Notes under the pieces: generated by a model
Databases searched by the model: none
Told to the model about the DNA's origin: nothing
Seen by the model: the letters and a program-made list of their open reading frames with translations, nothing else
In this document: positions 2,581 through 28,227 of the stretch, one piece after another
Layout of the letters: every line of letters starts with the position of its first letter
Numbering within the stretch: the first letter of the stretch is position 1
Program-made: the position numbers and the translations under genes
Source of the DNA: Nostoc punctiforme PCC 73102
GTDB lineage: Bacteria > Cyanobacteriota > Cyanobacteriia > Cyanobacteriales > Nostocaceae
Direction: 5' to 3'
DNA length: 32,000 bases
NCBI RefSeq assembly: GCF_000020025.1
Contig: NC_010628.1
Span: 7,080,001 to 7,112,000, forward strand

Positions 2581-3102
2581 ATGAGTGAGCAGGATTGCAG
2601 AAAGACTGTCATCCAAACAGGCCAAAAAGTCAATTTTGTAGATATTGGCAGTTCATTTTTGCCTGCCTTTGAAAAAATAACGAGTGTTCTAGTCGTACCT
2701 TTTACCAAGGATGGTTTAATTGTATGCCCTCTCCTTGACCGTGGTATTGACCTCCCTGGGGGACATGTGCAGATAGGCGAATTTACTTGTGAGGAAACTG
2801 CAAGACGAGAAGTTATGGAGGAGGTAAAAGTAACTCTAGGAGAATTAAAACTTGTGAAATTTATCCAGTCTGATTTTTACGGTAGTCAACCTGAGCAGCT
2901 TACATACCTTGTGGTCATGACTGGCTTTGTTGAGGAAATAATCTCTAACAATAGCTATGACTGTCTAAGCTTATGTACACATGAAAGTATGGGAAGAAAC
3001 ATTATGGATATTGATGAATTCATTTCTCAATATCAAGCAGGCAATAAAAATGATATGCGTCAAATTGTGCTAGACGCAAAAAGTGTGCTATTCAACATTT
3101 AA
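2581..3102 (+). CDS. NUDIX hydrolase
   Basis: Near-canonical Nudix box GGHVQIGEFTCEETARREVMEEVKV. It follows GX5E..REUXEEXXU, but the middle spacer has one extra residue. Confidence 0.75.
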   Translation: MSEQDCRKTVIQTGQKVNFVDIGSSFLPAFEKITSVLVVPFTKDGLIVCPLLDRGIDLPGGHVQIGEFTCEETARREVMEEVKVTLGELKLVKFIQSDFYGSQPEQLTYLVVMTGFVEEIISNNSYDCLSLCTHESMGRNIMDIDEFISQYQAGNKNDMRQIVLDAKSVLFNI

Positions 3103-3666
3103 TGGTATTTTCGCCTTTTGAAACACCTGCTCAACAGTAAATTTGAGTCCCTCGAATAGGGAATCTGTGAGTAATTCGTCTCCCATATAAGTTTGTGGTG
3201 CTGCATCTGGATAAAAAACAGTAATACTTCTGGCTTTACTATCTACCACCCACACCCGCAGCACTTTAGCATCCAAATAGTTTTTGGCTTTAGCTACCAT
3301 TTTTCCAAAGGTTTGTCCGGGTGAAATAATTTCAATCACTAAATCGGGAGGAACAGGACAAGCTTCGTTTTCATCCCAGTTAGTGGGTAAACGTTCATAA
3401 GAGATGTACAAAATATCTGGTGTTGGTACCCAATCTCGCCCCCGACGAGTTAATGTAACAGACCATTCCGGGCAGACTTCTCCTTTACCTTCACATGATT
3501 GCTCAATCAAGTTGAGAAGAACACGCGTAAGTTTGGCGTGAAAAAATTTTGGTGACATTTTAGGAATTGCTTGACCATCAACAAGTTCATAAGTTATATC
3601 TCCTTCACCTGGTGAAAGATTTAAGAACTCTTGCAAGGTTAATTGGTTTTTGGCTTGGAGTATCAT
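3088..3666 (-). CDS. Uma2-family (DUF820) putative endonuclease
   Basis: LTLQEFLNL..YELVDGQAIPKMSP..H..L, then PDLVIEIISPG and the RVWVVD tail, are typical of the cyanobacterial Uma2 family. Its 3' end overlaps the convergent NUDIX gene by 15 nt. Confidence 0.8.
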   Translation of the reverse strand: MILQAKNQLTLQEFLNLSPGEGDITYELVDGQAIPKMSPKFFHAKLTRVLLNLIEQSCEGKGEVCPEWSVTLTRRGRDWVPTPDILYISYERLPTNWDENEACPVPPDLVIEIISPGQTFGKMVAKAKNYLDAKVLRVWVVDSKARSITVFYPDAAPQTYMGDELLTDSLFEGLKFTVEQVFQKAKIPLNVE

Positions 3667-7892: not shown

Positions 7893-8552
7893 TTAAGTTT
7901 CCGAAGACTGGCGGATTTGATGCAAACTTCGGTTAAGCCAGTCTTCATACCAATCATAAAAACTTAAAGGCTGCCCCTGGTCGCTATTTGGATGAGAATC
8001 ATCAGGGTCGGTATCATGGAAAAAACTACAAAAATCCAAAGAAGCAGGATATATTCCATTATCATTAGTACGGTCATCTATCCAGATTTTTCCTGACTGC
8101 TCCCCGGTAATGACTAATATCGCATCAATTCCACAACCATAAGTTGTAATAGTGAGAGTACCCTGGATAAACTTATTGTCAAAGTAAGCATCATTTCTAT
8201 TGTTGACAATTAAATCTAAATCATTCCATGCTTCCGTTAAAGGAAATGGTTTAGAGAGAATTTCGTACTTCTCTTGGTATAGTTTTTCTGCGATGACATC
8301 TTCATCTTCAATTCCTGATAGTCCAAATAAGCCGTATCCTGGCCCCGCACCACCATTGCCAATTTCTAACAGAAAGTTTTTATATTCACTTGGTAAACTA
8401 ATATTGTATCTAGATTCAAAAACTTGAATATCTTTGTTACTCAAGCAAGGTTTTAATTGATATTGGTGTGATTCTGAGCCAAAAACCTCAAATGTAGCAT
8501 CTAAAATAGCTAATTGAGTTAATTTTTTCTTTAATTGCAAAACTTTATTCAT
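7893..8552 (-). CDS. SMI1/KNR4-family (SUKH-1) protein
   Basis: The segment ..FESRYNISLPSEYKNFLLEIGNGGAGPGYGLFGL.. is the characteristic SUKH/SMI1-KNR4 N-terminal core. Confidence 0.7.
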   Translation of the reverse strand: MNKVLQLKKKLTQLAILDATFEVFGSESHQYQLKPCLSNKDIQVFESRYNISLPSEYKNFLLEIGNGGAGPGYGLFGLSGIEDEDVIAEKLYQEKYEILSKPFPLTEAWNDLDLIVNNRNDAYFDNKFIQGTLTITTYGCGIDAILVITGEQSGKIWIDDRTNDNGIYPASLDFCSFFHDTDPDDSHPNSDQGQPLSFYDWYEDWLNRSLHQIRQSSET

Positions 8553-8664: not shown

Positions 8665-10131
8665 TTGCTCGTAATGACTCTGGCTGAAACTCCAAACTAC
8701 AAAAATTCTAGCAATCCTCTTCTCTCCCTCAACTACGAAAGCGCCTTAGAATCTCTAGGTGATGACTACTATGATGAGGTGGCAGCTGCTGAATTTCCCC
8801 AACACATCTTGCGTTGGCGTAACGATGCACTACTACCTCGTTTGGGTTTAGACCCCCAAGTAGTCAAAGACGAAGATTTCATCACAGCTTTTGGCCAGTT
8901 TCAGGGGCGCAAACCCTTGTTAGCACTACGTTACCACGGCTATCAATTTGGTGAATATAACGGACAGTTGGGTGATGGTAGAGGCTTTCTCTATGGACAA
9001 GTCCGCGCCACTGATGGCGAATTATACGATTTTGGCACAAAAGGCTCTGGGAGAACGCCCTACTCCCGTGGGGGCGATGGTATGCTCACGCTCAAAGGTG
9101 GGGTGCGGGAAGTTCTAGCTGCGGAAGCACTACACCACTTGGGTGTACGTACCTCGCGCTGTTTGACCATGATTGAAACAGGTTTACCACTTTGGCGGGG
9201 CGATGAACCTTCACCTACCCGCTCATCTGTGATGATTAGAATGAGCAGTTCTCATATTCGGTTTGGCACTTTTGAGCGACTGCACTATTTTCAGCGTCCA
9301 GATTTAACTAAGAAGCTGTTAGACCACGTAATTGAGCAGTATTATCGACACTTAAGTAGTGAACAAGATAAATATGTCTTGTTTTACGCCGAATTAGTTA
9401 AACGAGTTGCAGAACTAGTAGCGCAGTGGATGGCGGCGGGCTTTTGTCATGCAGTCCTGAATACTGACAATATGTCGATTACTGGAGAGAGTTTTGACTA
9501 TGGCCCTTACGCGTTTATCCCAACTTATAACCCATCCTTTATAGCTGCATATTTTGATTATTATGGACGCTATTGTTACGGTAATCAACCAAGTATTTGT
9601 AAGTTGAATTTACAAATGCTCCAAGAACCTTTAAAGGCGATTCTCGATAAAGACGAAATGGAAGCGGCATTAGAAAGGTTTGATGAATATTATCAAGCTG
9701 AATACAGTTCTTTGATGTTGAAAAGGTTAGGTTTTGTGGAATTGTCATACCCACAAGCTGCGGAACTGTTGAATCTAACGGTTGAATTTTTGAAGGATAG
9801 CCAAGTTGGTTATCACCAGTTTTTTTATGAGATGGCTCGAACTTTTTCATCAAAATGGCGAGATGAGCCAGGTTTTGTGATGAATAATTCAGATATTGTG
9901 CCAGTACCGGGTGCGTCAGGAATTTTTGATGATTGGTGCATACTATACCATAAAATCTTGAATGATTTTGATAGCGACCGCATCGATGTAATTGCCCAAA
10001 CACTAGCTGTTCATAATCCTAAAACGGCACTATTAAGACCTGTGATTGAGTCTACTTGGAAAGCAATTGCTCAAGAAGATAATTGGCAACCTTTTTATGA
10101 GTTAATCCAGGCAATTCAGTCTAGAAAATAG
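8665..10131 (+). CDS. selO: protein adenylyltransferase SelO (YdiU/UPF0061 family)
   Basis: [87 protein letters not shown] are hallmark SelO pseudokinase-fold motifs. The track start is TTG; the ATG at 8674 is more likely. Confidence 0.9.
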
Positions 10132-10215
10132 TAAAATCACACCTATTTTCTTTTTCATGTAGACAGACTTATTGAGATTATATCTGGTGTAATTTACACG
10201 ACGAGTAATCTAATA

Positions 10216-10240
10216 AGAGACGTTGCATTGCAACGTCTCT
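10216..10240. repeat. palindromic small dispersed-repeat hairpin (variant of the GTAGAGACG..CGTCTCTAC family)
   Basis: agagacgttgca t tgcaacgtctct forms perfect 12-bp arms, followed by acaaaaattttt. It could double as the selO terminator. Confidence 0.7.
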
Positions 10241-10457
10241 ACAAAAATTTTTAACTAAATTGTATAGATATAGCAATCCGAGTTGAATTGAATTGCGAGA
10301 AAATACCTAGGTCGGTTATCAAATATAAAAGTAAAATTTTATTCAGCCTTGCTAATTAGAAATCACGGCTACACAGACTAAACCCAAAGTTCTGATGCTC
10401 TAAAACCTACCTCAGAATTATTTTTGCCTGCGTGGGTTATTTTTTCAATCCACGTAC

Positions 10458-11735
10458 ATGGACGATAGTTTATGTAGCAACGAATTTTTTTCACCTATTG
10501 GTTCCAAATTTCTCTATCGCATCTTAGAAAACCTTAAAAAAATGAATCAGATATATATATCATACGCATGGAAAGATAACAAGAGTGAATTAGGTAGTCA
10601 ACGCGAAGAATTAGTCGATAAAATTTGCACCGCACTTATTTCTGAACGTTACAACTTAATTCGCGATCGCAACTATTTAACGCTAGGTAAGAGTATACAC
10701 GACTTCATGCAGGAAATCGGGCGCGGAAACTATGTAATTGTCGTTGTCAGCGACAAATATTTGCGATCGGAATACTGTATGTTTGAAGCTATTGAAATCA
10801 TGAAGCGCAAGGATTATGAACAAAAAGTTTTTCCTGTGGTTTTACAGGATGCTAATGTCTATACCAAAGAAGGCAAGACTGAGTATATAAAATATTGGAA
10901 GCAACAGAGTGAAAAACTAAAACAACTTATGGGTTCAGAACTATCTGCTCATCAAGATTCTGCAATGTATAATGTTGCTGAAAAAATTATGGAAATTTCC
11001 CAGAAGATTGACGAATTCATGTTTTTTATCTCAGATAAATTAAGCATTGATCCGTCTCAAAACTTTAATGGATTTATCAATCAGCTTACTGATGCTATTA
11101 AAAATGATGCTGTTAAACTCAGAAGCAAAAAGAGTATTTTAGTTGCAGGAACAGGATTTTTTGAAATTCCTAATGAAATCAATTGGTGCGCTCAACAACT
11201 TGGTGAAAAAATAGCAGAATATAACTATAACTTGATAACAGGTGGATGGGAAGGAGTAGATTATGTTGTCGCTGATAATTTTGCCGAAAAAATCGCGCAA
11301 AAAGATATACGCCTAACTGATAAGTTAACTCACGTTGTTCCGCGAGGAAAACAACCTGTATTTAAGGGTGGAAAAGTCGAATACACCGAGTCAGGTATTA
11401 ATGAGTGGCTTGATTGTTTGCGACATTCAGATTTGGTGATTCTTGTGGGAGGCGTTGGTGGAACTTATGAAACTTATCTATATGCTAAACAAGAGAAAAT
11501 TCCGGTGATTCCTATTGTCTGTACTAATGGCGATGCCAAAAAAGTATTCGACGAAATGCTGGCAAATTGGGATAGTAAATTAATGGGAAATATCTCACCG
11601 GAAAAATTTAAATCACTGAATCAATATATCAATGACGAATCAACAGCAGAAGATGTAGTCAATGATGTTATGGATATCGTTAACGAAATTATTTTTGCAA
11701 AAACCATGCTAAATACCCAGGGTCAGCTCATCTAA
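10458..11735 (+). CDS. TIR-domain / SLOG (LOG-like Rossmann) fusion protein
   Basis: N-terminal half: IYISYAWKD..GKSIHDFMQEIGRGNYVIVVVSDKYLRSEYCMFEAIEI is a TIR-like flavodoxin-fold pattern with an S-x-x-C-x-x-E glutamate at codon 10785-10787. C-terminal half: ILVAGTG..LITGGWEGVD..DLVILVGGVGGTYETY..IPVIPI matches the LOG/SLOG GGxxGxM and PGGxGTxxE motifs. The probable true start is ATG 10542 (MNQIYISY). Confidence 0.75.
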   Translation: MDDSLCSNEFFSPIGSKFLYRILENLKKMNQIYISYAWKDNKSELGSQREELVDKICTALISERYNLIRDRNYLTLGKSIHDFMQEIGRGNYVIVVVSDKYLRSEYCMFEAIEIMKRKDYEQKVFPVVLQDANVYTKEGKTEYIKYWKQQSEKLKQLMGSELSAHQDSAMYNVAEKIMEISQKIDEFMFFISDKLSIDPSQNFNGFINQLTDAIKNDAVKLRSKKSILVAGTGFFEIPNEINWCAQQLGEKIAEYNYNLITGGWEGVDYVVADNFAEKIAQKDIRLTDKLTHVVPRGKQPVFKGGKVEYTESGINEWLDCLRHSDLVILVGGVGGTYETYLYAKQEKIPVIPIVCTNGDAKKVFDEMLANWDSKLMGNISPEKFKSLNQYINDESTAEDVVNDVMDIVNEIIFAKTMLNTQGQLI

Positions 11736-11926
11736 TTTGGTATAAGGCATCTGCGAGTTAATAGTATCCCAACCCTCAGCCATCGAGAGTTGAGCGCAGC
11801 GATGCACTGAGCGCAGTCGAAGTGTCGAAACTCGGTTTACTGGTACTTTATTTTCACGCAATTCCCTAAACTTAACTTGAAAAATCAAAGAAGATAGGGA
11901 GGCATCATAACAAAACTTTTTGCCAA

Positions 11927-12565
11927 TTATGTTCCCGGACGAGAGCGAATATGATCGGGTATATGATGACGATCGCCTAATATTTCTAACAAAGGGCCAT
12001 TAACGTCAAATTTAACCATACTTACCGACGCGACCAAAATATTCACCCGATAGCGATAGCGTCCCAAATCAATACCCAGTAAACTGCAAAGCATAATCCG
12101 AATCGTGGCTTTATGGGAAACCACTAAAACATTACCTTGGTGATGTTTTTCTTGAATTTCAGCAATTACAGGCATAGAACGGTTAGCAATATCTACCGCA
12201 GTTTCTCCACCTTTGGGAGCATTCCAAGCGGGTTCTGTCATCCAATTTACATAGTTTTGGGCGTAATTCTCTTGGGCAAACGATTTACTCTTCCTTTCCC
12301 ATTCGCCGTAACTACCTTCTCTAAGTCCGTCACGCAACTGCATATCCATACCGATAGCATCACAAAATGGCTTGGCAGTTGCAATTGTGCGCTTCATCGG
12401 GCTAACGTAAACAGCTTCCCACTTCAATTTTTGATAAACATCGGCAAAACCGGATGCCATCTGCATCCCCTCTGTTGTCAACTCCGCATCAGTTTCACCG
12501 CAGAAATTACCACTTTGACTAAAAGTAGTTTCTCCATGTCGCAGTAAATATAAATTGAGTGTCAT
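11927..12565 (-). CDS. histidine phosphatase family protein (phosphoglycerate-mutase-like)
   Basis: LYLLRHGETTFS (RHG catalytic motif) together with VVSHKATIR (the second catalytic His). Confidence 0.85.
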   Translation of the reverse strand: MTLNLYLLRHGETTFSQSGNFCGETDAELTTEGMQMASGFADVYQKLKWEAVYVSPMKRTIATAKPFCDAIGMDMQLRDGLREGSYGEWERKSKSFAQENYAQNYVNWMTEPAWNAPKGGETAVDIANRSMPVIAEIQEKHHQGNVLVVSHKATIRIMLCSLLGIDLGRYRYRVNILVASVSMVKFDVNGPLLEILGDRHHIPDHIRSRPGT

Positions 12566-14583: not shown

Positions 14584-14958
14584 ATGATTGAAATGGAATA
14601 TTCATTCGAGGGGTATTGCTTTATGAAATTGGAAGAGTATTTCAACGCCCTTGCACCAGATGATATCCGGCTCAAAGGAACCCGGATTGGGATTGAGAGC
14701 ATTCTTTACGAGTATATCTATCGCTCTAAAACACCAGAAGAAATTGCCGAACAATTTCATACAGTGACGTTAGAACAGGTTTACGCCACGATTTTGTATT
14801 ACTTGCATAATCGTTCAGAGGTTGATGCCTATCTGGTAAATTGGTTGAAATTTTCCCGAACCATACGCGAAGAACAACAGCGAAATCCGTCTCCTGCTAG
14901 GATGAGGTTTCGGCAGATGCAGGAAGAAAACGCTGGAAAACAGTTACAGGAAAGCTAA
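14584..14958 (+). CDS. DUF433-domain protein (putative antitoxin/DNA-binding partner)
   Basis: IRLKGTRIGIESILYEY..TPEEIAEQFHTVTLEQVYATILYY fits the DUF433 pattern. ATG 14623 (MKLEEYF) is the likelier start. Confidence 0.7.
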   Translation: MIEMEYSFEGYCFMKLEEYFNALAPDDIRLKGTRIGIESILYEYIYRSKTPEEIAEQFHTVTLEQVYATILYYLHNRSEVDAYLVNWLKFSRTIREEQQRNPSPARMRFRQMQEENAGKQLQES

Positions 14959-15323
14959 TGGCAATTCAGTATCTGTTGGATGAACATTTGAGTCCTACAT
15001 ATCGTTCTCAACTTGTGCGGCGCAACCCTGAATTGGTCGTGCGAATCATTGGGGATTTAGATGTGCCACCCAAGGGTACTTCAGATCCAGAGATTTTGAT
15101 TTGGTGCGAAACCAATGGATTTATTTTGGTTACAAATAACCGTAAATCGATGCCCAGACATTTGGCTGACCATTTAGCTTCAGGTCGCCATATTCCTGGA
15201 ATTTTCACCATCGATGCAAACCAAAGCATTGGACAAACTGTTGAAGAATTAATCTTCATAGTTGAAGCTTCGTTTGAGGATGAATACCAGGATCGAATTG
15301 AATATCTACCTCTAAGCCAATAG
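14958..15323 (+). CDS. DUF5615-family PIN-like protein (putative toxin)
   Basis: YLLDEHLSP..SDPEILIWCETNGFILVTNNRKSM fits the DUF5615/Mut7-C PIN-like pattern. Its ATG overlaps the upstream TAA by 1 nt (TAATG). Confidence 0.65.
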   Translation: MAIQYLLDEHLSPTYRSQLVRRNPELVVRIIGDLDVPPKGTSDPEILIWCETNGFILVTNNRKSMPRHLADHLASGRHIPGIFTIDANQSIGQTVEELIFIVEASFEDEYQDRIEYLPLSQ

Positions 15324-23824: not shown

Positions 23825-23864
23825 GATCCCCCTAAATCCCCCTTAAAAAGGGGGACTTTAAGAA
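23825..23864. repeat. 40-bp inverted-repeat arm (left) flanking the DUF559 gene
   Basis: gatccccctaaatcccccttaaaaagggggactttaagaa is the exact reverse complement of 24308-24347. It contains the internal palindrome cccccttaaaaaggggg. A degenerate inverted copy follows at 23870-23896. Confidence 0.9.
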
Positions 23865-24259
23865 TTTTTCCCCTTAAAAGGGAGTTTAGGAGGGATTAAA
23901 CCCTGTATCTGCTCACACACACTATCAAATTGATTTAAAACTTGACTATTTGTAAACCTAATAATCTTTAAACCATAGCCTTCTAGAATATGTGTTCTCT
24001 CTATGTCATAATCTTGACCTTCATCTGTAAAATGGCTATCCCCATCAATTTTAACTACTTGTAAAGTAGGACAGTAGAAATCAACTATAAAATGATTAAT
24101 TGGTCTTTGTCTTAAAACCCGAAATTGAAAATCACTCAGATATTCACACCACAGCTTTTTTTCTGCTGGGGTCATATTTTTGCGAAGTTCTTTTGCTCTT
24201 TCTACAAGCTTTGGATTGTAAGGTAAATGGAAATTGCTACTGTTGAGGTTGTTCATCAT
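23858..24259 (-). CDS. DUF559 (Vsr-like) endonuclease-domain protein
   Basis: MTPAEKKLWCEYL..FRVLRQRPINHFIVDFYCPTLQVVKIDGDSHF..D..R..L...G..IIRFTNSQV is the typical DUF559 core. Confidence 0.8.
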   Translation of the reverse strand: MMNNLNSSNFHLPYNPKLVERAKELRKNMTPAEKKLWCEYLSDFQFRVLRQRPINHFIVDFYCPTLQVVKIDGDSHFTDEGQDYDIERTHILEGYGLKIIRFTNSQVLNQFDSVCEQIQGLIPPKLPFKGKNS

Positions 24260-24743: not shown

Positions 24744-24771
24744 AATTACGAATTACGAATTACGAATTATG
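24744..24771. repeat. STRR-type heptamer tandem repeat (AATTACG x3, plus a degenerate AATTATG)
   Basis: aattacg aattacg aattacg aattatg. It overlaps the stop codon and the last codons (VMHNS*) of the TPR reading frame. Confidence 0.85.
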
Positions 24772-25287
24772 CATTACTCTATCAAGACTTGCACTCACAC
24801 TTTCAGCATACGGTGACTTCAATCGCTGCAAAATCTTTAAAGCTGGTTGCAAATAGGATATCGCTTTAGTATATTCACCCTGCTGTTCTGCCAAATCTCC
24901 TAAGCACCACAGAGTTATTGCTTTACCTTGGACATCACCAATGCGTTCATTTATTTCCAAAGACTGATTGAAAAGTGCGATCGCTTGCTCCACTTCCCCT
25001 TTGTTCGCGTAGATACCTGCCAGATTGTTCAACGTCGCCGCTTTGCCTTGGACATCCCCAATGCGTTCTTCTATTTCTAAAGACTGATTGTAGAGTGCGA
25101 TCGCTTCATCCACTTCCCCTTTGTTGACGTAGATCAGTCCCAGACAGTGCAACGTCGCTGCTTTGCCTTGGACATTACCAATGCGTTCATTTATTTCCAA
25201 AGACTGATTGAAAAGTGCGATCGCTTGCTCCACTTCCCCTTTGTTCGCGTAGATAGATCCCAGTTCTTGCAAGGTTACCGCTTTGCC
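24760..25287 (-). pseudogene. TPR-repeat continuation of the CHAT-STAND gene downstream of an in-frame TGA (detached tail, readthrough extension or pseudogenised C-terminus)
   Basis: Same frame as 25288-28227. The codons just after the TGA read GKAVTLQELGSIYANKGEVEQAIALFNQSLEINERIGNV.., continuing the 40-aa repeat in register. The track ORF 24760-25272 (TTG start) covers most of it. Confidence 0.55.
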
Positions 25288-25740
25288 TCAGACATTTCCA
25301 ATGCGTTCAAATATTTCCAAAGACTGATTATAGAGTGCGAGCGCTTCATCCACTTCCCCTTTGTCGGCGTAGATATTTCCCAGTTGGATCAACGTCGCTG
25401 CTTTGCTTTGGACATTACCAATGCGTTCATTTATTTCCAAAGACTGATTGAAAAGTGCGATCGCTTCATCCACTTCCCCTTTGCCGGCGTAGATATTTCC
25501 CAGACAGCTCAACGTCACCGCTTTGCTTTGGACATCTCCAATGCGTTCACTTATTTCCAAAGACTGATTGTAGAGTGCGAGCGCTTCATCCACTTCCCCT
25601 TTGCCGGCGTAGATATTTCCCAGACAGCCCAACGCTTCCGCTTTGCATTGGACATTTCCAATGCGTTCAAATATTTCTAAAGACTGATTGCAGAGTGCGA
25701 GCGCTTCATCCACATCCCCTTTGTCGTCTTTAAGCATACA
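24921..25740. repeat. about 7 tandem 120-bp units (coding; 40-aa TPR-like repeats) with very high internal identity
   Basis: Unit starts (ctttgccttggacat..) recur at 24921, 25041, 25161, 25281, 25401, 25521 and 25641. For example, 24941-25015 is identical to 25181-25255 (75 bp). Confidence 0.9.
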
Positions 25741-28227
25741 TAAATGTTGATAAATTGATGCTAATTCTCTTTCGTCTTCTGCGGGACAAAAATTTAAAGC
25801 TTGTTGGTAATAGCTTAATGCTTGATCAACCTCACCCATTTGGTGTTTAGAATAAGCCATTTCTTTGAGAACACTATGATTTTTAGTAATTTCTAATGTT
25901 GATTTGCACAGATGTATTGCTTCCCGAAAACGGCTTTGATGCAACAAGTGGTTCGCCAATGAACTAGCTATTTTCCCCACAATTTCTTCATCCTTCCCCA
26001 ACAAAGCCAAGCGATGAATTTCTAACTTTTGTGACTCCGTAGCAGTTTCCTCTTCCCACCACAGACGATACAAAATTTGTGCAGCTTGTTTATACAACTC
26101 TTCACCCTTGGGGTTTTCTGGAAACTCTAGCAACGGTGACAAAATCCGGGGAACACGATACAACCTCTCTGTGTTGTTAGTCAGCGTAACTTCCAACAAA
26201 CCCAAAATTTCAGCGCGTTGAATATGACTTTCCCAACTTGAGATATCCTCACAAATCGGCTTAATAGCAGCTTGAGGAACAGGTAACTCATACACCAACA
26301 ACTTCCCCAGCATAAGACGCAAAGCTGGAGTTTGCTGCTTCAGCAATTCCTGTGCCAAAATATCCTCACGAAATTCCTTTTCCTTATCTGCCATCTTTTG
26401 CAGAATCATCTCAACTCCCCTCTCCGCTTCTGCCGACTTCGGGGAATTTTGCAAAATCTTATCTAACCATTCCAACAGCCGAGGATTTCCATTTGCTGCT
26501 TGTTTGGCACGTTCCGGCAAATCTGGCTGAAATTGCCAACTGCCATTAAACGAATCCAGACGATTACACTTTTTAATTAAATCTGCCCCACCCAAAGCCC
26601 CCAGAGGTTCGCGGTACAGACGATGATTCAGTTCCGACAATGTGAAATCGTAGCGACAGGTAATAATTACCTTGTGGGGAAGTTGGGAATTTTGCATCGC
26701 CTTCAGCAACGCCAGCAGTACATCTACAACTTGTGGTTGCAACAAATAAACCCCATTGCGTAATTCCAAATTCGCCTCAAAGTCATCCAGCACAAAAACA
26801 AAGCGCTGTTCTTTGGTATTGAGTCCTTCAGTGAAAAACTTGGTGAGGCGCTGCATCAACGGTAATTTGCCATTGAGAATTTCATGCCCCCGTTCCGAGG
26901 TACATTGTTCAGCAAGGGTTTTGAGCAATTTGTCCTCATCTAGTTGCCGAAAGTTCACCAGCCTGTGATAGCCAACCATCCTTTCTAGAAGTCGCGCCGT
27001 CACAGTACTCTTACCCACACCCCCCATTCCGTGGATGAGTACCCCCAATGAAGTGCGAATAGCTTTGAGACAACGTTGCAAAGTCCGCCGTCTGCCAACA
27101 AATTCATACGGTTTCGCCACCCGCACCTGTTGGGTATCGGGATCTAAAAACTGTTGGTATGCAGGTTCCGGCGCTGAGGGTGGCAAATCTCCCCACACTT
27201 CCACGAACGCACCCGGACATTCTCCCTGAATATATAACCGTAATAAATGCCAGTCACGCACTTTCTGTTTAAACAACTGCTGGTAAGTGCTAGCGAGTGC
27301 TTGGGCTAATTGATATCCGGCTGCCAATTTGCCGTAGAGATGCGCGGCGGCGGCTGTAGCAGTCCGGTCTTCCACAGGTCGCCCCCAACTTAAAACAGCG
27401 ATCGCCCCTTGTTCAATAAGTGCCTCAGCCATAGAAGGGACAGCGCCTTTATCTGGTGCTTGTCCAGTCCGACACCCAGACAAAAACACCAACTTGGGAA
27501 ACCGAAACCGGAAGACTTCGGCGAGTTCTGCGGCTGTGGTTTCGTGGCGTTCTCCAACTTCCGTCTCAGTGATAAAGTAAGGCGTGTAAGGTGCTTCACT
27601 TTTAATTGAGGCGTGTCCTGTGAGGTGAAACACATCAAAGTCATTAAAATACCGACTCCACACCTTACCCAACTCGCTAACGCAACCGCTTTCTTCCACC
27701 CGCAAATCTACAGCAAAATCTCGCGTATCAGCCAGAATTCTCGCCTCTTCCTGTTCAAACTCTAACTTTGGTTCCACGTCTTCCGGGTCGGTTGCCATAA
27801 ACAATACTCGCAATTGTCGTGGTTCCACGAGAAACCCTGCCGTTTCTTTCTCAATCCAGCGCAGAGGCAAAACCACCGGATTAACCCGCTTGACCAAAAA
27901 ATCCTCACCATCATGCAGAACTTCCCAAGGTAGATGTGCCAATTTTTTATCAGTATCAATGGCAATTACCAACCCCTCACCGCGACAGTCAGCAATTCCC
28001 CGACTCAACCAGCGTCCATCGCTATCTAACCAAAAAAATAACTGGTGCCCGATTCCTGGTAAATTAGGCAGCAGTTTATAGTAATCTCGTTCTCCTTGCT
28101 TGAGGAAATTAGCGATTTCTGCCAATTTCAGACGACGTGATTCATAGTGATTTTTTTGAGGTAGCCAATACCTGAGTTCAACTGTTTCCTGCGTACTTTC
28201 CCGAAGTTGAATGCGGATAGTTTGCAC
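25288..28227 (-). CDS. CHAT (caspase-like protease) - P-loop STAND NTPase (NACHT/NB-ARC-like) - TPR repeat protein
   Basis: CHAT: LRVLFMATDPEDV, DVFHLTGHA (His205, nt 27613-27615), KLVFLSGCRTGQ (Cys252, nt 27472-27474). NTPase: VLIHGMGGVGKSTV Walker A (Lys406, nt 27010-27012) and RFVFVLDDFE Walker B. The C-terminal 40-aa TPR units start around residue 750. The frame ends at TGA 25288-25290 inside the repeat array. The GTG start directly abuts the upstream TAA. Confidence 0.85.
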   Translation of the reverse strand: MQTIRIQLRESTQETVELRYWLPQKNHYESRRLKLAEIANFLKQGERDYYKLLPNLPGIGHQLFFWLDSDGRWLSRGIADCRGEGLVIAIDTDKKLAHLPWEVLHDGEDFLVKRVNPVVLPLRWIEKETAGFLVEPRQLRVLFMATDPEDVEPKLEFEQEEARILADTRDFAVDLRVEESGCVSELGKVWSRYFNDFDVFHLTGHASIKSEAPYTPYFITETEVGERHETTAAELAEVFRFRFPKLVFLSGCRTGQAPDKGAVPSMAEALIEQGAIAVLSWGRPVEDRTATAAAAHLYGKLAAGYQLAQALASTYQQLFKQKVRDWHLLRLYIQGECPGAFVEVWGDLPPSAPEPAYQQFLDPDTQQVRVAKPYEFVGRRRTLQRCLKAIRTSLGVLIHGMGGVGKSTVTARLLERMVGYHRLVNFRQLDEDKLLKTLAEQCTSERGHEILNGKLPLMQRLTKFFTEGLNTKEQRFVFVLDDFEANLELRNGVYLLQPQVVDVLLALLKAMQNSQLPHKVIITCRYDFTLSELNHRLYREPLGALGGADLIKKCNRLDSFNGSWQFQPDLPERAKQAANGNPRLLEWLDKILQNSPKSAEAERGVEMILQKMADKEKEFREDILAQELLKQQTPALRLMLGKLLVYELPVPQAAIKPICEDISSWESHIQRAEILGLLEVTLTNNTERLYRVPRILSPLLEFPENPKGEELYKQAAQILYRLWWEEETATESQKLEIHRLALLGKDEEIVGKIASSLANHLLHQSRFREAIHLCKSTLEITKNHSVLKEMAYSKHQMGEVDQALSYYQQALNFCPAEDERELASIYQHLCMLKDDKGDVDEALALCNQSLEIFERIGNVQCKAEALGCLGNIYAGKGEVDEALALYNQSLEISERIGDVQSKAVTLSCLGNIYAGKGEVDEAIALFNQSLEINERIGNVQSKAATLIQLGNIYADKGEVDEALALYNQSLEIFERIGNV

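Follow-up and report, generated by a model that had tools for sequence, protein, structure and literature searches.

A stand-alone TIR–SLOG fusion protein of Nostoc punctiforme as a candidate SLOG-gated NADase

A 32,000-nucleotide stretch of Nostoc punctiforme PCC 73102 (contig NC_010628.1, positions 7,080,001 to 7,112,000 of the forward strand; hereafter the window) carries a gene whose product joins an N-terminal TIR domain to a C-terminal SLOG domain through a helical linker. Because of these domain identities, a conserved catalytic residue, the apparent lack of the catalytic residues of LOG enzymes, the modular fusions seen among relatives and the analogy to known systems, we propose that the protein is a single-polypeptide, SLOG-gated TIR NADase, that is, a conflict protein with a probable role in anti-phage defence or abortive infection. 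We give this reading about an even chance of being right. What was observed directly comprises the domain identities and fold, the conservation of the glutamate and of the glycine loops, the gene’s isolation from partners and its accessory distribution. Residues below are numbered from the start of the 425-residue open reading frame (ORF), and the features of the gene are as follows.

10458–11735, plus strand: TIR–SLOG ORF, 425 amino acids (aa), from the ORF listing.
10542–11735, plus strand: most likely coding sequence (TIR–linker–SLOG), 397 aa from Met29; coordinates confirmed by translation.
10542–10865, plus strand: TIR domain, aa 29–136 (Pfam TIR_2 and TIR, PDB profile search, Foldseek).
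10785–10787, plus strand: codon of Glu110 (Glu82 when counted from Met29), predicted to be the catalytic glutamate, within the motif SEYCMFEA; codon verified.
10866–11129, plus strand: helical linker of three long helices, aa 137–224 (secondary structure of the AlphaFold2 model).
11130–11708, plus strand: SLOG domain at the LDcluster4/STALD border, aa 225–417 (Pfam, PADLOC, PDB profile search, Foldseek).
11148–11156, plus strand: loop G231-T232-G233 after the first SLOG strand (hhalign register), invariant in the family.
11241–11261, plus strand: glycine loop GGWEGVD, aa 262–268, aligned with GGRDGVME of TM1055.
11448–11474, plus strand: glycine loop and helix start GGVGGTYET, aa 331–339 (alignments to TM1055, EcThsA, SeThsA and BcThsA).

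The N-terminal half is a TIR domain, as a preliminary description of this DNA had proposed. Pfam TIR_2 matched aa 32–157 (E = 1.2e-13, 52 bits, cutoff 28), and this half also passed Pfam TIR (PF01582; E = 7e-10, 39 bits, cutoff 21). A profile search of the PDB with this half returned plant and bacterial TIR NADases, Cat1 among them, and Foldseek against the PDB found the TIR of Roq1 at a template-modelling (TM) score of 0.65 together with that of RPP1. In sequence, the domain is closer to plant TIR NADases than to ThsB, for which the PADLOC model gave a weak match (E = 8e-4). The same description had placed a glutamate at the catalytic position of TIR NADases, and this too was borne out: whether the PDB was searched with the single sequence or with a profile, SDKYLRSEYCMFEAIEI aligned with SKNYASSTWCLEELVKI of Roq1, and also with L6, RPV1 and RUN1, so that Glu110 falls on the catalytic glutamate column of the plant enzymes (part of CLxEL in Roq1 and L6). 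Glu110 is invariant in 24 of 24 homologues. By analogy with these enzymes, the domain probably cleaves NAD.

From 24 homologues, AlphaFold2 built a model with a mean predicted local distance difference test score (pLDDT) of 82 and a predicted TM score of 0.77. It places the TIR at aa 31–128, long helices at aa 137–161, 169–193 and 203–224, and a SLOG Rossmannoid fold at aa 226–417, in agreement with the helical linker described earlier between the domains. The least confident part of the modelled TIR is the BB-loop region (aa 71–90), as would be expected of a loop that becomes ordered upon assembly, and we count this in favour of the gated NADase. When the full protein was compared with the PDB using Foldseek, full-length ThsA chains ranked first. 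Invariant columns make up 45% of the TIR core and 32% of the SLOG, falling to 8% in the linker, which is the most variable region (mean entropy 1.49). Such a distribution would be more in keeping with a conserved small molecule as the thing sensed than with a variable phage protein. The first half of the linker, up to about aa 190, accompanies the same type of TIR in other architectures.

Judged from its sequence, the C-terminal domain is a nucleotide-binding SLOG. It passes both the STALD model of Pfam (PF18185; aa 240–410, 35.1 bits, cutoff 24), a name that stands for ‘Sir2- and TIR-associating SLOG’, and the LDcluster4 model (PF18306; 32.6 bits, cutoff 26.3), and the ThsA STALD models of PADLOC match this half alone. 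A PDB profile search with the SLOG half returned TM1055 (E = 2e-11), the molybdenum cofactor (Moco) carrier protein, and EcThsA and SeThsA (E of about 1e-3). The sole NCBIfam match, TIGR00725, scored 26.8, far under its cutoff of 106.9. In Foldseek, the C-terminal half matched the SLOG of BcThsA in complex with 3′ cyclic ADP-ribose (3′cADPR) at a TM score of 0.72, the Moco carrier protein and TM1055 at about 0.7, LOG enzymes at 0.55–0.66 and DprA only distantly (about 0.5). Structure and profile comparisons of the separate halves thus led to TIR structures for one and SLOG structures for the other, as anticipated. Both LOG/SLOG glycine motifs attributed to this half are present and conserved: in GGWEGVD, residues G262, G263, W264, G266, V267 and D268 are invariant in the family and the loop is kept across the wider subfamily, and GGVGGTYET lies further on.

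We compared the SLOG pocket with that of BcThsA, whose SLOG sequence was taken from the PDB (residues 281–476 of 6LHX_A, 100% identity) and aligned to a profile of 20 sequences of the SLOG subfamily. As hmmalign covered the C-terminal third only, the remainder was aligned globally with hhalign. In the C-terminal register, which is independently backed by hidden Markov model alignments to EcThsA, SeThsA and TM1055, BcThsA G399, E403, P416, T420 and K425 correspond to G335, T339, P352, T356 and K361. In the N-terminal register, which is of low confidence (hhalign probability 25%), G289, S290, S288 and F357 correspond to G231, T232, A230 and V294, and R371 has no counterpart, the gap falling between W317 and L318. 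The G231-T232-G233 loop is the equivalent of G289–S290 of BcThsA, which makes diphosphate contacts there. According to a preprint by Manik et al., E403 of BcThsA holds the distal-ribose hydroxyls and S290, R371 and K388 hold the diphosphate, with contributions from the G289 and G399 backbones; Ka et al. give S288, F357, R371 and E403 as the STALD signature residues. Of the four side chains in contact with 3′cADPR in BcThsA, R371, K388 and E403 are absent here, the hairpin with K388 being deleted, and S290 alone is kept, as Thr232. The glycine-loop scaffold is retained, G231, T232 and G335 included. Because the pocket is built differently from the 3′cADPR pocket of ThsA, the ligand, or at least its binding mode, should differ: the SLOG ligand is probably not the 3′cADPR bound by ThsA, and binding of 3′cADPR in the ThsA manner appears unlikely. 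The phrase ‘two Thoeris domain types’, used earlier for this protein, therefore holds in that a TIR and a STALD profile are both passed, but not in that its relatives belong mostly to LDcluster4 and most of the 3′cADPR-binding side chains are missing.

It had also been suggested that the protein might process TIR-derived nucleotides. In such a fusion of two enzymes, the SLOG would be catalytic, as a LOG-like N-glycosidase or another nucleotide-processing enzyme, and would process or degrade the ADP-ribose (ADPR)-type product of the TIR. The SLOG half is nearest in sequence to TM1055/TIGR00725 and LOG-like proteins and keeps both LOG-type glycine loops, which favours this alternative, as do EAD7–SLOG and EAD11–SLOG proteins, in which the SLOG is the only candidate output domain. 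Cleavage of 1′-ribosyl N-glycosidic bonds by some SLOGs has moreover been proposed in papers from the Aravind laboratory. However, the LOG motif PGGxGTxxE is replaced here by GGVGGTYET, in which the position three residues after the threonine, where LOG and STALD proteins have a conserved glutamate, is the invariant Thr339, with Glu338 one residue before; TM1055 reads GGEIGTAIE at this site. In the register of the BcThsA alignment, the invariant INEWLDCL helix, the equivalent of the helix that carries the LOG/ThsA arginine, has no arginine, and neither the glutamate nor the arginine position is conserved in the wider SLOG subfamily. With threonine at the LOG/STALD glutamate position and no arginine seen, the domain would be a binder rather than a glycosidase. 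LOG-type glycosidase activity is thus unlikely on these residues, nucleotide processing by that mechanism is disfavoured, and we regard the two-enzyme reading as highly doubtful.

In the SLOG-gated NADase that we favour, the sensor and effector roles, oligomerization, NADase activity and defence role are proposed by analogy with ThsA, TIR-SAVED, TIR-STING and also Cat1. At rest, the TIR domains would be apart and inactive. A nucleotide-derived ligand would then enter the glycine-loop pocket of the SLOG and alter SLOG-mediated oligomerization, a change that may be relayed through the helical linker; the TIR domains would meet to form a composite active site around Glu110, and NAD+ would be hydrolysed or converted, leading to NAD+ depletion and growth arrest. 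We count for this mechanism that the SLOG fold is nearest to ThsA among full-length PDB chains, with the glycine loops and G231, T232 and G335 kept; that the SLOG subfamily is fused to alternative effectors, and the TIR with its first helices to alternative C-terminal modules; that no neighbouring gene is conserved between clades; and that the gene behaves like an accessory gene in the way typical of conflict genes (rare, in two phyla, with an empty site, remnants and a relative on a phage-like element). Both the auto-regulated NADase and the self-contained signal-producer/sensor put forward in the preliminary description are still viable candidates. Possible sources of the ligand are the protein’s own TIR, unlinked TIRs or other enzymes in genomes rich in conflict genes, and a metabolite that rises upon infection or stress.

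The modularity was apparent from a Pfam scan of the 60 nearest SLOG relatives, of which 56 matched LDcluster4 and five STALD. TIR was the commonest partner (TIR_2 in 24 of the 60 and one CAP12-type TIR, or about 40%) and occurred in both domain orders; other partners were CHAT, caspase, trypsin, SIR2_2, PNP_UDP_1, protein kinase, FGE-sulfatase and the adaptors EAD1, EAD7 and EAD11. Proteins of about 350 aa in the order SLOG–TIR are common, and TIR–SLOG proteins with other TIR subtypes exist too. Conversely, the TIR together with the first helices recurs with other C-terminal modules, namely a STAND-like region, a transmembrane segment plus SH3, and FGE-sulfatase. By the look of these architectures, the partner swapping is the module-shuffling pattern of effectors and sensors in conflict systems. 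TIR plus SLOG is a recurrent and already catalogued architecture, so that the fusion singled out as notable in the preliminary description is genuine but not unusual (TIR is the partner in 24–25 of the 60 relatives, in both orders). TIR–SLOG associations were reportedly described computationally by Burroughs et al. in 2015. No split-gene equivalent was seen, in that no TIR lies beside the SLOG-only relatives from Bacteroidota.

A giant metagenomic relative of 2,057 aa (P0066) has five tandem SLOG domains followed by TIR and FGE-sulfatase. Another (P0061, L050 1332–2441) combines SLOG with a CAP12/Pycsar-type TIR on a phage-like element that also carries a helix-turn-helix repressor, Amidase_2 and Prim-Pol; no signal-generating partner was found beside it.

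The frequency of the TIR–SLOG pairing also bears on an autocrine alternative, a Thoeris system in a single protein, in which the TIR would make a cADPR-type or other ADPR-derived signal and the SLOG of the same or a neighbouring molecule would sense the product. Activation would then be cooperative, by positive feedback, and would dispense with a separate ThsB. The strong preference of this SLOG subfamily for TIR over any other partner suggests a chemical link of TIR products to SLOG. In addition, in none of the clades does a ThsB-like, cyclase or other signal-generating gene lie next to this stand-alone gene, and the catalytic glutamate is kept, as it is in both signal-producing and NAD-depleting TIRs. 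On the other hand, the SLOG is devoid of the residues with which ThsA holds 3′cADPR, a known product of TIRs, pure positive feedback would need a trigger and a safeguard against self-activation, and the same SLOG subfamily occurs on caspase, CHAT, kinase and PNP domains, which are incapable of making an ADPR-type ligand. Taken together, this makes an autocrine sensor plausible yet unlikely. A little less likely again is its more elaborate form, a one-protein Thoeris-like circuit that would act as an autonomous, cooperative NAD+-depletion switch, in which the TIR makes an ADPR-derived messenger that the SLOG of the same oligomer senses in a pocket chemically unlike that of ThsA. If it were true, the logic may extend to many SLOG–TIR fusions (about 40% of the SLOG subfamily).

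Among known systems, type I Thoeris ThsA (SIR2–SLOG; BcThsA 6LHX/7UXS/8BTO, SeThsA 7UXT and EcThsA 8WC0) resembles the TIR–SLOG protein in layout, with an N-terminal NAD-cleaving domain and a C-terminal SLOG. The likeness extends to the best full-length Foldseek match, the SLOG TM score, the passing STALD profile and the retained equivalents of G289, S290 and G399. By contrast, the effector here is a TIR and not a SIR2, no thsB is adjacent, the R371, K388 and E403 contacts and the K388 β-hairpin are absent, and the nearest SLOG relatives are LDcluster4 rather than STALD. Because neither thsB nor a SIR2 or Macro effector is present, the TIR–SLOG gene is not a Thoeris system. The catalogued TIR–SLOG and SLOG–TIR fusions (PF18185 and PF18306) have the same domain pair, and both Pfam models are passed here; unlike most of these relatives, in which the SLOG comes first, the length is about 350 aa and the TIR is of another kind, ours starts with the TIR, which is of a subtype of its own, and joins it to the SLOG by a long helical linker. 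TIR-SAVED and TIR-STING of CBASS and Cat1 of type III CRISPR likewise fuse a TIR effector to a nucleotide-sensor domain and would be expected to follow the same logic of ligand-induced oligomerization and TIR activation, whereas their sensors are SAVED, STING or CARF instead of SLOG, and the TIR–SLOG gene has no cyclase or CRISPR partner nearby. ThsB and stand-alone bacterial TIR NADases (AbTir and others) have the TIR fold and conserved glutamate in common with the protein, to which the latter adds a C-terminal SLOG. In sequence-profile searches, the SLOG half matches the LOG, TM1055 (TIGR00725) and Moco-carrier SLOGs best, and it has both glycine loops in common with them; the differences are Thr339 at the catalytic glutamate, the apparent lack of a catalytic arginine, the low TIGR00725 score and the fused TIR. 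On this comparison, TIR–SLOG may come closest in its workings to a ThsA that has exchanged its effector, or to a TIR-SAVED or TIR-STING that has exchanged its sensor.

If the SLOG-gated reading is true, the protein would provide the first worked example of the commonest LDcluster4 SLOG architecture, TIR plus SLOG. It would tell whether SLOG sensors beyond ThsA read TIR-made nucleotides or other ligands, whether a SLOG can gate a TIR as SAVED or STING does, and whether one polypeptide joins signal production and sensing. The protein is tractable, with 397 aa, a soluble-looking character, a good model and E110, T232, W264, D268, W317 and T339 as targets for mutation. For specialists the architecture will come as no surprise, as it was predicted in 2015 and such module swapping is expected; its appeal is that of a clean, small and testable representative of an abundant but uncharacterized architecture.

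The TIR–SLOG proteins form a tight family (57–96% identity, 57–70% across orders, typical length 391 aa). Invariant or nearly so are Glu110, SEYCMFEA, the GTG at 231–233, GGW(E/Q)GVDY, GGxGGT(Y/F)ET and PIVCTxGDAK. An exhaustive scan of 1.84 billion representatives of clusters at 50% identity returned a single representative with the full TIR–SLOG arrangement of this family and thousands of relatives of each half alone. In a survey of 185,579 species, with one genome per species, full-length copies were present in about 33 genomes: Nostocaceae, Leptolyngbyaceae/Alkalinema/Adonisia and three metagenome-assembled genomes (MAGs) of Cytophagales/Bacteroidota. Occurrence spans two phyla and is patchy in Leptolyngbyaceae and Cytophagales. 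The 96%-identical orthologue of Nostoc sp. ATCC 53789 (P0001) is named ‘DNA transporter’ by NCBI, a label that was probably mis-transferred from DprA/Smf, another member of the SLOG superfamily.

About 15 Nostoc genomes share one locus, in which selO is followed by the TIR–SLOG gene, in some cases a His_Phos_1 phosphatase gene, and then an ABC exporter; in the window, SelO lies upstream and His_Phos_1 and the ABC exporter lie downstream. At this locus, presence and absence of the gene involve the following two features.

10216–10241, plus strand: perfect hairpin after selO, 12 + 12 nucleotides (AGAGACGTTGCA/TGCAACGTCTCT), from the sequence; kept in Nostoc sp. KVJ3.
10242–11904, plus strand: 1.66-kb cassette of upstream region, gene and 3′ flank (blastn of KVJ3 locus L046 against the window).

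Nostoc sp. KVJ3, whose SelO is 92% identical, has the same flanks and lacks the gene. Homology to its empty site stops at 10241, which makes the hairpin, probably the selO terminator, the left edge of the cassette, and resumes at 11905; tblastn for a gene remnant at the KVJ3 site found none. In place of the cassette, KVJ3 has about 350 bp of G-rich sequence with tandem GGGGAGGCA-type repeats (L046 6568–6916). Elsewhere the gene has decayed: Nostoc sp. LEGE 12447 (L029 8001–8912) has lost about aa 250–356 in frame and kept the TIR half, and in Nostoc sp. NMS2 (L033 8001–8465) only aa 21–171 are left, so that both deletion derivatives are without the SLOG core. Other Nostocales have selO without a TIR–SLOG gene. 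The gene is thus dispensable in Nostoc despite its slow divergence.

As for partners, no TIR, SIR2, Macro or cyclase gene other than TIR–SLOG itself is present in the 32-kb window. The gene is therefore stand-alone, as had been noted from its immediate surroundings, and no partner is common to the clades. Clustering of the neighbours of 41 loci found no partner gene conserved outside the Nostoc synteny; no TIR gene neighbours it in the window or at 40 related loci, and no cyclase or CRISPR signal generator occurs in the window or the related loci. In Leptothoe, a Cytophagales MAG and Oscillatoria, the neighbours are housekeeping or miscellaneous genes. Because no neighbour is conserved across clades, the protein appears autonomous. 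A phosphoribosyl pyrophosphate-synthetase gene directly upstream in Leptothoe was considered as a partner and rejected, as it is limited to three near-identical genomes.

Several observations weigh against a SLOG-gated defence NADase. The gene is outside defence islands, with housekeeping neighbours in every clade examined; no relative was found on IMG/VR viral contigs, and PLSDB plasmids held no full-length copy and only single-domain matches below 45% identity. PADLOC reported no complete system, only partial ThsA-STALD, bSEFIR and ThsB domain matches. Across Nostoc, the protein diverges at the rate of SelO (87.2% versus 87.3% and 81.8% versus 82.6% identity), and is therefore vertically inherited within the Nostoc clade; high conservation also extends over the greater part of its surface. 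Slow divergence with a conserved surface is atypical of arms-race genes. No signal-generating partner is linked to supply a ligand, and EAD–SLOG proteins, with SLOG as the sole non-adaptor domain, show that this type of SLOG may itself act as the output in some systems. The N-terminal part of the SLOG–ThsA alignment, finally, is of low confidence, and the literature yielded no functional study of a fused TIR–SLOG or SLOG–TIR protein, only computational mentions (‘SLOG-TIR systems’).

Some of these observations would suit a domesticated regulator instead, an NAD+ or nucleotide-signalling or programmed-cell-death switch, conserved in filamentous cyanobacteria, that would serve dormancy or cell fate, for instance, and not anti-phage defence. 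The fixed chromosomal position in the Nostoc clade with divergence equal to that of selO, the housekeeping neighbourhoods away from plasmids and viral contigs, an unremarkable GC content at third codon positions (GC3) and the identity kept across orders all speak for such a role. Yet the gene is confined to a small minority of the cyanobacterial species and a few Cytophagales, it is cleanly lost or truncated in close relatives within Nostoc, many Nostocales have selO without it, and the architectures in which relatives of the two domains occur are overwhelmingly those of conflict systems. We consider domestication improbable.

The ORF at 10458–11735 is present as first reported, with a probable coding sequence that begins later. 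The true start is most likely Met29 (10542) rather than 10458, because 38 of 40 full-length homologues begin at MNQIYISYAW and aa 1–28 are disordered in the AlphaFold2 model (pLDDT <50). The gene had been called AT-rich, which is so only mildly: its GC content is 35.5% compared with a mean of 42% for the 26 other genes (z = −1.6, fourth lowest of 27), but GC3 is ordinary (z = −0.8), making composition poor evidence of foreign origin. The shortfall lies in the second codon position (GC2), reflecting amino-acid composition, and we rejected a foreign origin judged from composition as GC3 is normal. For the 410-bp spacer upstream, an Rfam search at a permissive threshold over 9900–12100 gave no match and promoter and terminator scans were at background level; we claim no RNA element there other than the selO hairpin.

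The genes flanking TIR–SLOG in the window encode biotin synthase, a GNAT protein, SUKH-1, SelO, His_Phos_1, the ABC exporter, a DUF433/DUF5615 pair and a PRC-barrel protein. The His_Phos_1 gene (11927–12565, minus strand) is itself accessory, being found at eight of the about 15 syntenic Nostoc loci and at the KVJ3 empty site. Next to selO, the SUKH-1/SMI1_KNR4 gene (7893–8552, minus strand) is variably present at the syntenic Nostoc loci and, at 68–98% identity, diverges much faster than its neighbours. The abutting DUF433 and DUF5615 genes (14584–14958 and 14958–15323, plus strand) have a toxin–antitoxin-like layout. A NUDIX hydrolase gene (2581–3102, plus strand), overlapped by a gene for a Uma2-family endonuclease (3088–3666, minus strand), and a DUF559 (Vsr-like endonuclease) gene (23858–24259, minus strand) had no link to TIR–SLOG that we could find. 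About 13.5 kb away, a 979-aa STAND-type conflict protein combines a CHAT protease, an AAA_16/nSTAND1 NTPase and TPRs (25288–28227, minus strand); a TPR-only ORF of 170 aa directly after it (24760–25272, minus strand) may be part of the same gene, interrupted.

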